64,000 nt of DNA from an uncultured Bacilli bacterium (lineage in GTDB: Bacteria; Bacillota_I; Bacilli_A; RF39; UBA660). A model generated the notes under the pieces. That model made no database searches and was not told the DNA's origin. It saw nothing but the letters and a program-made list of their open reading frames with translations. The stretch is from NCBI GenBank assembly GCA_934096535.1, contig CAKOMC010000001.1:1255-65254 (forward strand). Reading direction: 5' to 3'. Numbering within the stretch: position 1 is the stretch's first letter; every line of letters starts with the position of its first letter. This document shows positions 25,911 through 59,712 of this stretch, piece by piece. Both the position numbers and the translations under genes were made by a program.

Positions 25911-27113
25911 TTAGTTATCATTAAGTATCATTGTTATTCTAGCAAAACCATTACCATGATTACCCGTCATTTCAGTATTATCTATATGTGATGGCATTTT
26001 CAAATAATCATCTTTTTCGGTTGTCCAGTTATACCCATTACCATCAATCATTACGGTATTTGTAAAATAAAGTCCCGAATAATGAATACTCCCGCCAGTA
26101 TGAATTATATTATCTTCAGTACTTTCTTTTTTTATTGCATCGCAACCATTATGCCCAGAAATGAAAGATGAACCTCCGGCTCCCGAAGAAACATTTGCAA
26201 ATGTACTTAATCCGGAACCACCGCCGTAATATCCGCCACCACCAGTTCCATAGCTATCACAAGCATCAACAGCATAACCGAATTTGCTATTACAAGTAAG
26301 ATTAGAACCAACTCCATAACTAGTTTGACTACCACCAGTTGCAACTTTATGAATATGGCTATAATCTCCACTTCTAATATTACCACTATAACCAATTAAA
26401 CCACCAGCAGCACCACCAATTAAAGAAGAATTCAAATATTTTCCAGTTCCTGCGCCACCTGCCGCGACCATAATTCTTGATTTTAAGGAATTAAAATCAT
26501 TCCAATTACCATTAACTATTCTAATATCGGTGGCACCACCGCCACCCGTATATTTTCCATCGGTTCCAGAGCCTCCAGCGGCTCCACCATTATAACCACC
26601 TTTAATGGAAAAAGTGGAACCACCAACATAAATATATAATTTTTGATTTTTTTCTAAATTGATTGTTCCCGAAGTATAACCACCTAATCCACCTTGATAA
26701 GTTGTATCACTAATAGTTACATCACCACCACTTGCTCCCCAAGCTTCAATTTTATATGTCCCCTTAATTGGAGCCGTAAAGGCTTGAACATTACCAGTAT
26801 AATCAAAATTAAATACGGTATCGCCATTATAAAAATATAAATTACATTTAACCTTTTTAGTTAAATTTTTTAATAACAACCCCCAAGACTCATTATCCCA
26901 CACTGCCTCAATATTTTCATCATCACATACAGCCTCATCAAATATAGCTTCCCCTTTTTTAGGAAAATCATCTTGCCTAACATTATTCATAAAAACGCCA
27001 AGTTCAGAACTATTTAATAACTTATTATCTTTATCATTAAATTGAATATTTCTAAAAATTAAAAGAATACCAACTAATAAAAGCACCCAGAAAAATCTTT
27101 TCATTATTATCAA
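25911..27113 (-). CDS. secreted glycine-rich protein, member of the 'C..W.L..KKxKCNLYF' N-terminal-module family
   Basis: Signal anchor, then AVCDDENIEAVWDNESWGLLLKNLTKKVKCNLYF (the shared module). About 250 aa of Gly-rich repeats follow (GGAAGGSGTDGKYTGGGGATD..., AAGGAGTGKY...). Confidence 0.75.
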   Translation of the reverse strand: MIIMKRFFWVLLLVGILLIFRNIQFNDKDNKLLNSSELGVFMNNVRQDDFPKKGEAIFDEAVCDDENIEAVWDNESWGLLLKNLTKKVKCNLYFYNGDTVFNFDYTGNVQAFTAPIKGTYKIEAWGASGGDVTISDTTYQGGLGGYTSGTINLEKNQKLYIYVGGSTFSIKGGYNGGAAGGSGTDGKYTGGGGATDIRIVNGNWNDFNSLKSRIMVAAGGAGTGKYLNSSLIGGAAGGLIGYSGNIRSGDYSHIHKVATGGSQTSYGVGSNLTCNSKFGYAVDACDSYGTGGGGYYGGGSGLSTFANVSSGAGGSSFISGHNGCDAIKKESTEDNIIHTGGSIHYSGLYFTNTVMIDGNGYNWTTEKDDYLKMPSHIDNTEMTGNHGNGFARITMILNDN

Positions 27114-49141: not shown

Positions 49142-49166
49142 TTCATAGAGTATAAAACTCTATGAA
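49142..49166. repeat. recombination-site-like element (9-bp palindromic arms + 7-bp core TATAAAA)
   Basis: Seen directly in the sequence. Confidence 0.7.
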
Positions 49167-49394
49167 AGCTAATTTTCGGTATCTCTATTTAACTTATAAC
49201 TTAAATATACCATAGTTTTTCTTCTTTTTAAAGGAGATTTTTTATAGTTTTATAGTCAAATTTCTAGTCAAGAGCTTTTATGTCAAAGCCAGTATTTACC
49301 TTGTTTTCAATCCATTTTTTTAGTCAAATAAAAATAAAATTTCTGGTCAAAATTATCGTCAAGCGCCTAATTTTACTAGGTTTTTCCTACTATT

Positions 49395-49419
49395 TTCATA
49401 GAGTTTTATACTCTATGAA
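49395..49419. repeat. recombination-site-like element (core TTTTATA, reverse complement of the 49142 site core)
   Basis: Seen directly in the sequence. Confidence 0.7.
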
Positions 49420-50638: not shown

Positions 50639-50663
50639 TTCATAGAACATATTACTCTATGAA
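50639..50663. repeat. recombination-site-like element (core CATATTA; one arm mismatch)
   Basis: Seen directly in the sequence. Confidence 0.65.
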
Positions 50664-50903
50664 AGCAGAAAATCGACATTTATTTTTAATTTATATGTTA
50701 ACTATATCACAGTTTTAAGGCTTTTAAAAGAGTCTTTTTTTATCTATTATAGTCATTTTTGTAGTCAAATAATTTTGGTATAAAGTCTGTAAATCCAAGA
50801 CTCTGTAGAAAAATTTGTAGTCAAATATTCACATTCTTTTGTGGTCAAAATTCATGGTCAAAATTTTTCAATCCTCAATAAATACGGGCTTTGCAAGCCA
50901 TTT

Positions 50904-50928
50904 TTCATAGAGTAATATGCTCTATGAA
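50904..50928. repeat. recombination-site-like element (core TAATATG)
   Basis: Seen directly in the sequence. Confidence 0.7.
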
Positions 50929-50960
50929 GCCTAAAGTTCGACAAATAAGGAGTTTTGACT

Positions 50961-52121
50961 ATGAAAAAGAAATATTTTATAACGGGGTTTATAATAATTT
51001 TAGGAATACTTGTTCTCTCAAGAATAAATTTAAATAACAATAAAGACTTAGCGGTTTATATTGAAAACGAACTAAATTCATCAATTCCCGCTAGTAATGA
51101 GAATCTTTATGTAAATAAAATAGATTGTGATAACAATGTAAATGCTTATTGGGATAATGATAACTAGGGTTTATTTATTAGTAACTTTTCTAAAAAAACT
51201 AAGTGTAACTTGTACTTTATCCATGATACTGAAAAGCCTTATTGGCAAATTGAAGAGGTTGAAAAAACAAGTGTTTTATCTACGGATATCTTTACTATAA
51301 AAATTTCTGGTAATGATTCATTAAGTAAAGTTACATCAAGTCTTGATACAAGTAGTTTATCATTTTATGTTAACGACACTTTGCAATCACCAATTAAAGT
51401 TGAACTTACTAAACTAGAAGAATCAAACAAAAAAATCATCTACTCTCTCAAAGTCCATATGATTGGTGGCGAAGGAAATCTAAAGTTAAAAATTAATAGT
51501 AACACTTTAACAGATAATGAAACCAATCAAAATGATGAAATTACATTAGACACAGGCATTACTGTAAGTAAAAATTCGGCTAAAATCTTGCATTATTATA
51601 GTACAAACGAAACTGAGGCTAGTATTCACTCCAACAAAGAAACACTAGATAAATACTATAATAATGTTACACATACAAACAACTATACACAAGAAAAAAT
51701 CATTTCCGAAAAATTTGATTTAGTATTTTTAAACTCTTCCGTTTGGGGAGTCCCTTCTACAGCAAACAATATTTTTAGTGCCAATATAAATTTGCTTAGC
51801 CTTGGCAATGATACAAATGACTATTTGGATATAATTAAAACCAGTGCTTCCAGCAAGTCGTCGGTAAATTCTTCGATGAAAGTATTGAATAACAAACTAA
51901 CATATTATATGCCTGATTATATTGCAGGCAGCACCGACAGTCAAAGACTAATTAAATTTAATAGCGATGTTAATATTTTATATAAAAATACTACAAATGA
52001 TGTCGAATATGATTCTATTGGTTACATTGAGCAAAATGGAAGAACTTGGCTACATTCTCAAATTGCTGAAAGCCAATATTACATTATTCCAATGGTGCAA
52101 TTTACGCTTGGTCAACTATAA
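50961..52121 (+). pseudogene. variable-family gene 2, interrupted by a single in-frame TAG (TGG to TAG in the conserved W of the ...WDNDN-W-GLFISNF motif)
   Basis: ORFs 50955-51167 and 51210-52121 are in the same frame. The stop codon at 51165-51167 replaces the Trp codon that genes 1 and 3 carry at the equivalent position (gataaatgggg vs gataactaggg). The downstream reading continues GLFISNFSKKTKCNLYFIHDTEKPYWQ... Confidence 0.7.
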
Positions 52122-57393: not shown

Positions 57394-58887
57394 CTAATTT
57401 TTAGTAATAACATTTCTAAACGAAACATCATCATAATCTTTTCCACTACCATTTGTTGATAAAAAAATACCAGCCCTACTTCCGGATAAATAGCTACCAC
57501 CTCTTGCCATTGCAGGTCCATTTTCCCATAAAGCGTAAGATGTATCATTATACCAAGTTGAAGAAGTTGAACTTCTAACCTCTTTAGTAGCATCGCCAAG
57601 AGAATACATCTCAAACGAAGTATGATTTAAAAATATATATTTATCAAAATACTTATCTAAAGGAATATTGTCATCATTAAAGCCAGTATCGCTATACAAA
57701 TTTTTATTTTGATTGCCATCAATCAACAAAACCATAACAGCTTCATAAGAACAACCACTTAAATCATATATTCCAAATACATTCCCAGTAGTAGAAGCAT
57801 TAACGCCATTTTCATTCCACCTAAAATTAGTTGGGCATAAATCATTTTCTGAAGCTTCGGAATCAACGCTTGTTCCAGAACACCCAGTAACATAACTTGC
57901 ATTATTATTAATCCAAACCTCACATCCACTTTCAATACAGTTATTTTTATCAATATATCGTCCATATTTAGAATTAGTAAGATAAGCAACCGCTCCCCAG
58001 TCCATATTTTTCATCATATGACTATCAATTTCAGTAGTGTTTAAACCATATAATAAATTGTTAATTAATTCTATATTTCTTGATATCATAAATTTACTAT
58101 ATAAATTTATATTTTTAATACTAACTAAATTAGGCTTTATCGTTGCCAAATCAGTCGTTCCTGTCATTTCAAACTTTCCTACCCAAATACCCGACAATTC
58201 TGTATCGCCAAAAGTAAAAGCTGGGTGAGTTAAATACTCGCCATTTTTGTTTCCATTTGCTTTTGGTCTTTCTGTACTTTCAAATATAATATTAATCATT
58301 TGTTCATCACTAACACCATTTTCGGCATTCCATAATCTATAACGATATCGTGGTATCCAAACATACATTTGTAAAATGTCATTCATATCTATAATTTGTC
58401 CGACCATATCTGGTTTTAAATTCATATTACTATCAAAATATTTATTTTTTACTGTGGTATCGCTACAATTAACCAAAACAGCATTCCCCCACTTATGATT
58501 TTCATAATCATACCAAAGAGAATTTTCATCAGCAATCAAAATATTTCCAGTATCATCATAAACAACAGGAATAAACCCTTGATAAAGTTCAGGCTTCGTA
58601 ACATCTTTTATTGTCTGAAAATACAAATTACACTTAGACTTTTTAGATAAATTACTAACAAATAGCCCCCACTCTTCATCATTCCAGGAAATATTAACAT
58701 CATTATCACAAACAGCCTTCGTAAAAACAGACTCATTCTTACTAGGAATTTTATCAGTTAATTCACCATCAAGATAATTAGCAATATATTCCTCTTTTAA
58801 TAAAGACTTACCAAATAATACATTTGCTGTATATAAAATCATTAATCCTATTATCACTATTAAAATCATCTTTTTTTTCATAATCAT
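57394..58887 (-). CDS. variable-family protein 4: conserved N-terminal module + C-terminal FGE-sulfatase (SUMF1/DUF323)-like domain
   Basis: The module is AVCDNDVNISWNDEEWGLFVSNLSKKSKCNLYF. The C-terminus carries …AMARGGSYLSGSRAGIFLS…VSFRNV, which matches the RGGSW…GFR signature of FGE-sulfatase domains. The likely start is ATG at 58881 or 58887, downstream of an AGGAG RBS. Confidence 0.75.
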   Translation of the reverse strand: MIMKKKMILIVIIGLMILYTANVLFGKSLLKEEYIANYLDGELTDKIPSKNESVFTKAVCDNDVNISWNDEEWGLFVSNLSKKSKCNLYFQTIKDVTKPELYQGFIPVVYDDTGNILIADENSLWYDYENHKWGNAVLVNCSDTTVKNKYFDSNMNLKPDMVGQIIDMNDILQMYVWIPRYRYRLWNAENGVSDEQMINIIFESTERPKANGNKNGEYLTHPAFTFGDTELSGIWVGKFEMTGTTDLATIKPNLVSIKNINLYSKFMISRNIELINNLLYGLNTTEIDSHMMKNMDWGAVAYLTNSKYGRYIDKNNCIESGCEVWINNNASYVTGCSGTSVDSEASENDLCPTNFRWNENGVNASTTGNVFGIYDLSGCSYEAVMVLLIDGNQNKNLYSDTGFNDDNIPLDKYFDKYIFLNHTSFEMYSLGDATKEVRSSTSSTWYNDTSYALWENGPAMARGGSYLSGSRAGIFLSTNGSGKDYDDVSFRNVITKN

Positions 58888-58911
58888 TCTCCTAAATAAC
58901 CATATTTCGGC

Positions 58912-58936
58912 TTCATAGAGTATACAACTCTATGAA
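58912..58936. repeat. recombination-site-like element (core TATACAA)
   Basis: Seen directly in the sequence. Confidence 0.7.
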
Positions 58937-59176
58937 AAACTGACCGTGAGACCCGTATTCACCTAGAAGTAGTAATTAATTGACCAGAAATTTTGACGAG
59001 AAAAAATTAGATTTATTGACTACAAAAGGTTCTTAGACTCAAGGTAACTAAAGACTTAGAAAGAAAATTAATTGACTATAAATTTGACTATAATAAAATT
59101 CAAAATCATCTTTAAAACATTTAAAAACTATGATATATTTAACATATAAGTTAAAAATAAACGCCGATTTTCCGCT

Positions 59177-59201
59177 TTCATAGAGTTGTATACTCTACGA
59201 A
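59177..59201. repeat. recombination-site-like element (core TTGTATA; one arm mismatch)
   Basis: Seen directly in the sequence. Confidence 0.65.
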
Positions 59202-59322
59202 AAAGTAAGTTTTATAGTCAAAAAAAAGGCCTTGTATCATCTAATCGATTTTAGGTCTTTTAATTATTATAATAAAAATACAATTCTAAATAATCTTTTT
59301 ATCCTTTTAAATAAATCTAAAA

Positions 59323-59712
59323 TTATTTGGTAAAATAAACACTACACTTAGTTTTAGCAACATCATTAGTTATAGTAAGACTCCAACTACTAGTATCAAA
59401 AGTAGCGGTTGCCCCATTCGTACAACTAACACTTTTTAAAACTAGACTAGTATCTTTACTAGGAAATCCCCCACTCACATAAGTATCATTAATAAAAGCA
59501 ATTTTCTTTATTGGTTCGTAAGTAAACTTGGCAACTGTCGTTCTTATAACCTCTTCTTCAGCGTGCGCTGTAAACTTTGAAAAAGCAAAATAAACCACCG
59601 TTGATAAACATAAACATAATGATACAGTGCCAATTCCATACTTCAAATATAAAACTCTATTTTTTTTACGCTCTATTTTTTTTAAAACTTTATTATAATC
59701 TTTACTCATCAT
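59323..59712 (-). CDS. short family member consisting of the N-terminal module only (129 aa)
   Basis: A signal anchor, then …SVSCTNGATATFDTSSWSLTITNDVAKTKCSVYFTK, which follows the same C…W.L…K.KC.(L/V)YF pattern. It ends 3 residues after the motif. It lies about 120 bp outside the distal site of switch 4, in the same orientation as gene 4. Confidence 0.5.
   Translation of the reverse strand: MMSKDYNKVLKKIERKKNRVLYLKYGIGTVSLCLCLSTVVYFAFSKFTAHAEEEVIRTTVAKFTYEPIKKIAFINDTYVSGGFPSKDTSLVLKSVSCTNGATATFDTSSWSLTITNDVAKTKCSVYFTK

Follow-up and report, generated by a model that had tools for sequence, protein, structure and literature searches.

In the 64,000 nt stretch of DNA analysed here (hereafter the window), which comes from an uncultured Bacilli bacterium (GenBank assembly GCA_934096535.1, contig CAKOMC010000001.1), the segment at positions 58912-59201 is very probably a promoter-carrying invertible element, or inverton, that switches the adjacent surface-protein gene at 57394-58881 ON and OFF. 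We term this segment cassette 4 and the gene that follows it gene 4; cassettes 1-3, which are of the same type, precede the genes of a tandem cluster in the same window. Cassette 4 is bounded by inverted 25 bp sites whose spacers are reverse complements of each other, and it is laid out as follows.

58912-58936: gene-proximal core site, composed of a TTCATAGAG arm, the 7 nt spacer TATACAA and a CTCTATGAA arm
58937-59176: invertible interior of 240 bp, homologous to about 100 cassettes of related genomes (alignments and the inverted copies L119 and L120, described below)
59177-59201: gene-distal core site, composed of TTCATAGAG, TTGTATA and CTCTACGAA, with a single mismatch, in the outer arm
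58882-58911, minus strand: short leader of 30 nt, with the ribosome binding site AGGAG at 58889-58893
57394-58881, minus strand: gene 4, 495 aa from the ATG at 58881

Inversion can be seen at this very locus. A homology search with gene 4 identified a protein record (P0121) that is 100% identical from the ATG at 58881 onward (495 aa) and is carried by two short Logan contigs from different runs, L119 (SRR29981081) and L120 (SRR29980986). Compared with the window as it stands, the DNA upstream of the gene in these contigs matches over its last 77 nt only, beginning at the proximal site. Once positions 58921-59192 of the window are reverse-complemented in silico between the spacers, this upstream DNA matches over its full length, with 182 of 184 identities in L119 and 85 of 85 in L120, and the breakpoint of the inversion is the proximal site. 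Cassette 4 exists in both orientations in nature. Both contigs terminate inside the cassette, as is expected if the sample held both orientations, and repeat copies could also break the assembly. An exact-match look-up of a 497 aa translation of gene 4 returned nothing, the 495 aa form having been found through the homology search, and a scan of metagenomes for the cassette 4 spacer site gave four unrelated contigs and not the locus itself.

The core sites have a 9-7-9 plan of two inverted arms around an asymmetric spacer that sets orientation, as in sites of the lox and FRT type. With up to two mismatches allowed, TTCATAGAG-N7-CTCTATGAA occurs eight times in the window (0.00 expected from 100 shuffles), and the eight sites form four pairs (49142/49395, 50639/50904, 52145/52410 and 58912/59177) with four different spacers. 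The 7 nt spacer is never its own reverse complement, so each site is directional; as the two spacers of a pair are reverse complements, the sites are inverted relative to each other, and the sole outcome of recombination between them is inversion of the DNA that they enclose. The three cluster cassettes are as follows.

49142-49419: cassette 1, spacers TATAAAA/TTTTATA, the same element type and orientation relative to the gene
50639-50928: cassette 2, spacers CATATTA/TAATATG, preceding a gene interrupted by a TAG codon
52145-52434: cassette 3, spacers CTTATAA/TTATAAG

Aligned in the direction of the downstream gene, the four cassettes have a mean column identity of 82%, and all lie in the same orientation relative to their genes. 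A preliminary description of this DNA had noted the 9 bp arms before gene 4, the exact reverse complementarity of TATACAA and TTGTATA, the difference of this spacer pair from the three of the cluster, and a homologous interior with a conserved block and TTGAC repeats. All of these features are present, the single mismatch in the distal outer arm aside. Its proposal that they constitute a dedicated invertible system rather than a chance palindrome is upheld by the flipped copies in two assemblies, by at least 101 homologous site pairs, and by a recombinase family encoded beside the sites.

The element class extends well beyond the window. A site scan covering one genome per species returned at least 105 loci, and the figures for the class given here and below apply to the matches listed. 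Most of these loci come from uncultured gut Bacilli, among them Hadza metagenome-assembled genomes (MAGs), 'Mycoplasma sp. CAG:956' and 'Tenericutes UMGS735'; the Hadza MAG CAKOMH is 96% identical to the window across 3.2 kb. At least 101 adjacent site pairs have exactly reverse-complement spacers, unpaired sites lie almost without exception at contig or block edges, and single genomes hold at least 24 pairs (CAKOSN) and at least 20 pairs (CAKOMH). The distance between paired core sites is bimodal among the matches listed, at 252-255 or 262-266 bp with none between; these values correspond to approximately 24 and 25 helical turns and suggest a phasing constraint on synapsis. In an alignment of 98 cassettes, conservation is about 0.99 in the arms and 0.5-0.8 in the spacer columns. 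In eight comparisons between orthologues or tandem paralogues, the flanks are colinear (73-98% identity) and the site-to-site cassette of about 290 bp is reverse-complemented (80-93%), with the breakpoints at the sites and the spacers unmoved on either side. Of the 98 cassettes, 72 are oriented relative to the adjacent gene as in the window and 8 the other way round; for 18 the orientation is ambiguous. The arrangement differs from the many-site shuffling of coding segments in shufflons (Rci type) in that isolated cognate pairs surround a non-coding promoter segment, and no similar element was found in phage and plasmid collections.

The state of the switch is suggested by elements in and beside the interior of cassette 4.

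59111-59139, plus strand: candidate promoter, with a -35-like TTTAAA (59111-59116), a 17 nt gap and the extended -10 element TATGATATATT (59129-59139)
59139-59172, plus strand: conserved block TTAACATATAAGTTAAAAATAAACGCCGATTTTC, which the preliminary description quoted in reverse complement
58980-59088, plus strand: five TTGAC(C/G/T) repeats, as a pair at 58980/58993, a single copy at 59016 and a pair at 59072/59084; candidate accessory (arm-type) sites
59224-59262, both strands: hairpin outside the distal site, with a T-run on each strand

The best-conserved interior element of the 98 cassettes is TnTGnTATAtT, at about 0.9 per position. Promoters of the extended -10, or '-16 TRTG', form are typical of low-GC Gram-positive bacteria, and the motif TRTGnTATAnT has 11 copies in the window (3.5 expected). 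Four of them are those of the cassettes (59129-59139 on the plus strand; 49214, 50711 and 52217 on the minus strand), and some of the others are found immediately before genes. The extended -10 points away from the gene in each of the four window cassettes. In L119, the extended -10 and the conserved block adjoin the proximal site and face the gene, and the leader itself is too short to hold its own promoter. Because the conserved promoter faces away from the gene, the window state of cassette 4 is read as OFF, and all four window cassettes are probably OFF. We propose that in this orientation TTTAAA-N17-TATGATATATT would be aimed at the hairpin past the distal site. In the flipped, ON orientation, as in L119 and L120, the promoter would lie about 40 bp from the proximal site and would read through this site and the 30 nt leader into the gene; the conserved block would then be the start of the transcript.

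The hairpin at 59224-59262 has a predicted energy of -14.0 kcal/mol (z -4.05) on the plus strand and of -8.1 kcal/mol (z -2.0), followed by U8, on the minus strand. It is likely the terminator of the upstream 129 aa gene, and to judge from its sequence it probably also halts outward transcription from the cassette in the OFF state. A generic terminator scan showed no enrichment over shuffles and carries no weight here. A terminator inside the cassette near the proximal site was considered and rejected, since a small GC hairpin is found there in cassette 2 only and the four regions have z values of -0.7 to +1.3. Within the tandem cluster, the promoters that cassettes 2 and 3 present in the OFF state aim into the 3' ends of the preceding genes with a spacing of about 25 nt and no terminator, and antisense transcription into the upstream paralogue is possible at these two positions.

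The TTGAC repeats may have a part in recombination rather than in transcription. The paired copies in cassette 4 are 11-13 bp apart, and across the 98 cassettes the repeat positions are kept as T.GTCAAAtTTaT.GTCAAA, with a period of about 11 bp. The conservation of such phased pairs, which also occur in distant lineages, suggests that they are accessory sites. Two segments from Lachnospiraceae MAGs that have the same core sites, one of 0.57 kb (L088, 6653-7248) and one of 1.1 kb (L032, 4250-5394), have TTGAC(C/G)-N7-TTGACGG towards one end and, towards the opposite end, a canonical TTGACA-N17-TATCAT/TATGAT promoter; the L088 segment adjoins a glycosyltransferase operon and is probably a capsule-type phase switch. 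For paired repeats that are retained together with the core site across classes, an accessory (arm-type) role fits better than that of a promoter element. In cassette 4 the pairs would probably serve as accessory binding sites, helping to join core sites that are only about 265 bp apart.

A candidate for the enzyme comes from genomes in which the sites lie beside a recombinase gene, an association drawn from the 8 kb blocks listed (at least 105), which were picked by the site motif alone. In a goat-gut Clostridia MAG (L019, 3906-5396), core sites with the spacers TAAACCC/GGGTTTA flank the gene for a 383 aa tyrosine recombinase, and therefore the enzyme's own gene would be invertible. A tblastn search with this protein revealed homologues beside sites in L002 and L096, which belong to the Bacilli clade, and in L105 and L060; in these five genomes, L019 included, the recombinase is found approximately 70-300 bp from a core site. 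The homologues are 35-38% identical to each other across lineages. In L002 and L096 the enzyme has 355 aa and its gene starts 160-200 bp from the cassette, and the recombinase of the genome studied here is expected to be a 355 aa protein beginning with MGRKGESIFKRKDGRYEARY. The family has the Pfam domains Phage_int_SAM_3 and Phage_integrase, preceded by a conserved N-terminal extension of about 65 aa with invariant residues. Its best solved relative is the Tn1549 integrase (6EMY), with an E value of 1.4e-15 for a single sequence and of 2.8e-32 for a profile; by its catalytic and core-binding domains the family belongs with the Tn916/Tn1549 integrases, and a GES..RKDGRY motif in the extension resembles the Tn916 arm-binding domain. 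In L110 the recombinase gene resides between bacA and rmuC/RNase J, which is a housekeeping context and not a mobile element.

We propose that a chromosomal tyrosine recombinase of this type, encoded elsewhere in the genome, would act on dozens of cassettes. The setting is not that of the integration and excision of a mobile element, as the sites are inverted and upstream of chromosomal genes, the recombinase gene of L110 has a housekeeping location, and similarity to phages and plasmids was not found in the collections searched; nor is it that of a serine invertase of the Hin/Gin/Mpi type with a 2 bp crossover site, as the associated enzyme is of the tyrosine type and the site has the 9-7-9 form. 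That the recombinase always lies beside a cassette was also considered and was rejected, being false for the homologues P0003 and P0016. In L002, the stretch between the cassette and a divergent recombinase gene (2291-2487) holds a hairpin with U6, together with an extended -10 promoter, TGCTATAAT, of perfect form, and the recombinase gene therefore looks insulated from the cassette promoter.

Several other explanations of these data were weighed. The switch could be real with the opposite polarity, the window orientation being ON through a weak gene-directed TTTAAA-N18-TATAGT promoter and the flipped orientation being OFF. A sigma-70 scan does find gene-directed TTTAAA-N16/18-TATTAT/TATAGT in all four window cassettes, and about 90% of the assignable cassettes have the window orientation, as one would expect of genes that are for the most part normally expressed. 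Nevertheless, we consider this polarity unlikely. The A at position 2 of the supposed '-10' is poorly conserved among the 98 cassettes (about 0.4, versus about 0.9 for the opposing TnTGnTATAtT), and it is the opposing element that matches the promoter type upstream of other window genes. The canonical promoter of the two Lachnospiraceae segments likewise faces away from the adjacent glycosyltransferase gene as assembled, and large variable families of surface proteins are usually mostly silent. A further alternative keeps the inversion and assigns it to another enzyme of this genome, for instance a Xer-type or some different tyrosine recombinase, so that the Tn1549-like enzymes next to sites in other genomes would be there by coincidence. 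A recombinase was indeed not found in the window, and one close homologue has no site nearby; on the other hand, five of the blocks chosen by motif carry one recombinase family at about 70-300 bp from a site, three of them in lineages outside the Bacilli clade, and in one case the sites flank the recombinase gene itself. A 9-7-9 core with a 7 bp overlap also suits a tyrosine recombinase, and coincidence of this kind seems quite improbable to us.

It is less probable still that the cassettes are miniature mobile elements with 25 bp terminal inverted repeats, whose differences in orientation reflect independent insertions. Such elements would be consistent with the many homologous copies per genome (at least 20-24), with the terminal inverted repeats, and with contigs that often stop in or beside cassettes. 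However, at this locus and in the eight comparisons the breakpoints fall exactly in the sites and the spacers have not moved, and it is hard to believe that elements would so often have re-entered at the identical base the other way round. The four window cassettes are not surrounded by direct repeats of the kind that a target-site duplication would leave, the distance from a cassette to the anchored surface-protein gene downstream of it is always fixed, and nothing similar turned up in the phage and plasmid collections. The preliminary description had itself named simple transcription-factor operators as the outcome that would overturn its proposal. On that account the 9-7-9 sites are bound by a dimeric transcription factor and flank an ordinary promoter, and no recombination takes place; inverted 9 bp arms with a fixed gap are typical of dimeric repressors, and the arms are indeed invariant and the centre variable. 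Operators would not be predicted to have exact reverse-complement spacers in at least 101 pairs, and neither the natural inversions with breakpoints at the sites nor the tyrosine recombinase genes beside them would be explained, so that this possibility has next to no weight. A promoter inverton worked by a tyrosine recombinase is the explanation we prefer.

The spacers bear on how such an enzyme might choose between sites. Among the 98 cassettes there are 35 kinds of spacer, without homogenisation. Cassettes 2 and 3 differ at two spacer positions, with the changes mirrored in both sites, and the orthologues of gene 4 in L121 and L122 (87-88% identical) are preceded by TTCCAAA/TTTGGAA in place of TATACAA/TTGTATA; to judge from these sequences, spacers evolve fast, partners changing together. 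The informative feature is the exact reverse-complement pairing of the spacers within each cassette. That the spacers keep cassettes from recombining with one another is plausible. In general, tyrosine recombinases require overlaps of matching sequence, and for this reason the spacer of a cassette would probably favour the cognate partner over the sites of other cassettes. On a fuller and decidedly tentative reading, to which we give somewhat less than even chances, one domesticated Tn916/Tn1549-type master invertase serves all of the cassettes, the TTGAC arm-type repeats build the synapse, and the 7 bp overlap acts as an address that confines recombination to the cognate pair; the core-site and recombinase pair common to uncultured Bacilli and Clostridia (Lachnospiraceae capsule-type loci) would be part of this same tentative reading. 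In one side case, L013, tandem cassettes at 8-296 and 1893-2181 have the common spacer pair GTTAAAA/TTTTAAC and lie in opposite orientations, such that the intervening gene could be inverted or deleted.

A number of findings weigh against one or another part of this account. The assignment of ON and OFF follows from a sequence motif, and a generic sigma-70 scan of the region was not enriched (93 matches versus 73 +/- 10 expected). In the 64 kb window the candidate recombinase has no homologue, and the 20 open reading frames (ORFs) of the window that were compared with Pfam likewise included no recombinase. A 74%-identical homologue, P0003, is located among housekeeping genes and has no core site within 10 kb; the link between enzyme and site is one of association. 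For the N-terminal extension the top match in the PDB is the arm-binding domain of Tn916 Int, at a weak E value of 0.41, and this domain was not recovered by the family profile or by Pfam. As for partner choice by spacer, Tn916/Tn1549 integrases tolerate mismatched overlaps. Moreover, spacers are shared at 3.4% within genomes and at 3.9% between genomes (permutation P = 0.35), and the fourth private spacer that the preliminary description had put forward as an argument loses its force, since four different spacers in four cassettes is the chance expectation at these rates. The spacers appear private because spacer diversity is high; among cassette pairs at the same locus, 1 of 26 has a common spacer, which is about the chance rate.

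Features of this system are found separately in several known ones. The invertible elements of Mycoplasma penetrans are about 135 bp long and have 12 bp inverted repeats. In that species every mpl (P35) lipoprotein gene has a separate invertible promoter (Horino et al., 2003, summarised in PMC2268961), and within the scope of this summary the likeness extends to dozens of surface-protein genes, clustered and separate, each with its own short promoter-containing invertible element, and to tyrosine recombinases that are encoded elsewhere and proposed to act globally. In contrast, the hosts here are wall-bearing, spore-former-like gut Bacilli (with SirA, GerM and LCP genes), and the candidate recombinase is of the Tn1549/Tn916 integrase type where that of M. 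penetrans is Xer-like. The cassettes, at 253-265 bp and with full 9-7-9 palindromic sites, variable spacers and internal TTGAC repeats, also differ from the mpl elements. The fimS switch of Escherichia coli (FimB/FimE) is similarly an invertible promoter element of about 300 bp that turns a surface-structure gene ON and OFF by means of short inverted repeats and tyrosine recombinases, and it contains accessory protein sites where our cassettes contain candidate ones. However, fimS is a single locus with 9 bp inverted repeats and dedicated recombinase genes beside it, and it employs IHF and Lrp; the present system has one type of site that recurs at dozens of loci, and its recombinase lies elsewhere.

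In Clostridioides difficile the switches number fewer than ten and their inverted repeats are mutually dissimilar, whereas the arms described here are invariant and the whole cassette is a conserved module present in at least 20-24 copies per genome. The RecV-dependent switches cwpV, flgB, cmrRST and pdcB (for example PMC5903667 and PMC9286219) are similar in that the host is a Firmicute and that a single tyrosine recombinase flips a number of regulatory segments at different places in the genome. Cre/loxP and Flp/FRT share with our sites the inverted binding arms around an asymmetric spacer that sets orientation, and engineered heterospecific lox sites, in which different spacers do not recombine together, are resembled by the many spacer variants found here; lox and FRT have 13 bp arms and an 8 bp spacer and need no accessory sites, and the spacers here are sometimes shared within a genome. 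In the gut commensal Bacteroides fragilis a master invertase, Mpi, likewise controls numerous promoter invertons of surface structures, namely polysaccharides. This enzyme is a serine recombinase that uses one shared inverted-repeat sequence, in contrast to the tyrosine-type family and the asymmetric 7 bp overlap, varying between cassettes, described here. The integrases of the conjugative transposons Tn1549 and Tn916 are the closest solved relatives of the candidate enzyme; they integrate and excise mobile elements, whereas the candidate is encoded in a housekeeping context and is presumed to act on inverted site pairs whose overlaps match perfectly.

In the literature that was searched, inverton surveys included, no description of this site or system was found. 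Promoter inversion by recombinases is already known; what sets this system apart is the palindromic cores with variable overlaps, the modular cassette with phased repeats, the integrase type, the copy number and the host clade. Poorly known uncultured human-gut Bacilli ('Mycoplasma sp. CAG:956' and 'Tenericutes UMGS735') would devote dozens of loci to the reversible switching of anchored surface proteins, a sign that phages or host immunity exert strong pressure. It is an unusually legible system as well, with invariant 9 bp arms, a variable 7 bp overlap, a module of fixed length, one promoter and a candidate enzyme with a solved relative, and it therefore makes it possible to test directly how one tyrosine recombinase keeps many sites with identical arms from cross-recombining. 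If the overlap does act as an address, engineered heterospecific lox sites would have a natural counterpart in the cassettes, and some 20-40 surface-protein promoters could switch independently without scrambling a small chromosome; the natural spacer variants, of which there are at least 35, would, if orthogonal, be usable for multiplexed DNA inversion with a single enzyme. Cassettes also break short-read assemblies and may mislead the annotation of such genomes.

The switched genes encode proteins that are related at their N-termini. The preliminary description placed gene 4 at 57394-58887; its start is more likely the ATG at 58881, 7 nt after the AGGAG ribosome binding site, which gives the 495 aa product on record as P0121. 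Gene 4 had also been called a member of the same family as the cluster genes, which applies to its N-terminal 100 or so residues, common with cluster genes 1-3 (43% identity, E 4e-21), and not to the other 400 or so, which are unrelated. This N-terminus consists of a membrane anchor and a Cys-containing module of about 70 aa that is also present in the cluster genes. No Pfam family matches gene 4 even at E <= 1, and PF03781, found on one distant homologue, is a lead only. An AlphaFold model built with 34 homologues has a mean pLDDT of 47 and is confident for residues 1-170 only. About 60 of the ORFs that flank cassettes bear the N-terminal module of gene 4, and most of the others belong to a second family of approximately 500-680 aa with an N-terminal hydrophobic segment and no Pfam family.

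Some additional features of these loci can be mentioned. The leaders 3' of many cassettes (for example L002 2776-2800, L008, L023 and L041) have a conserved GTGTAAA-N4-5-TGTAAA, and those of the window form another class (GCCnAAA...). The 129 aa gene upstream of cassette 4 (59323-59712, minus strand) encodes only the membrane anchor and the Cys-containing module and has no cassette of its own. Cluster gene 2 (50955-52121) has a TAG at about 51165, where its paralogues have TGG, and an intact cassette therefore precedes a pseudogene. Elsewhere in the window, 25911-27113 on the minus strand encodes a 400 aa protein with the Pfam ALK/LTK glycine-rich domain (E 7.8e-45), and some cassette-controlled proteins of other genomes (L055) have glycine-rich C-terminal regions as well.

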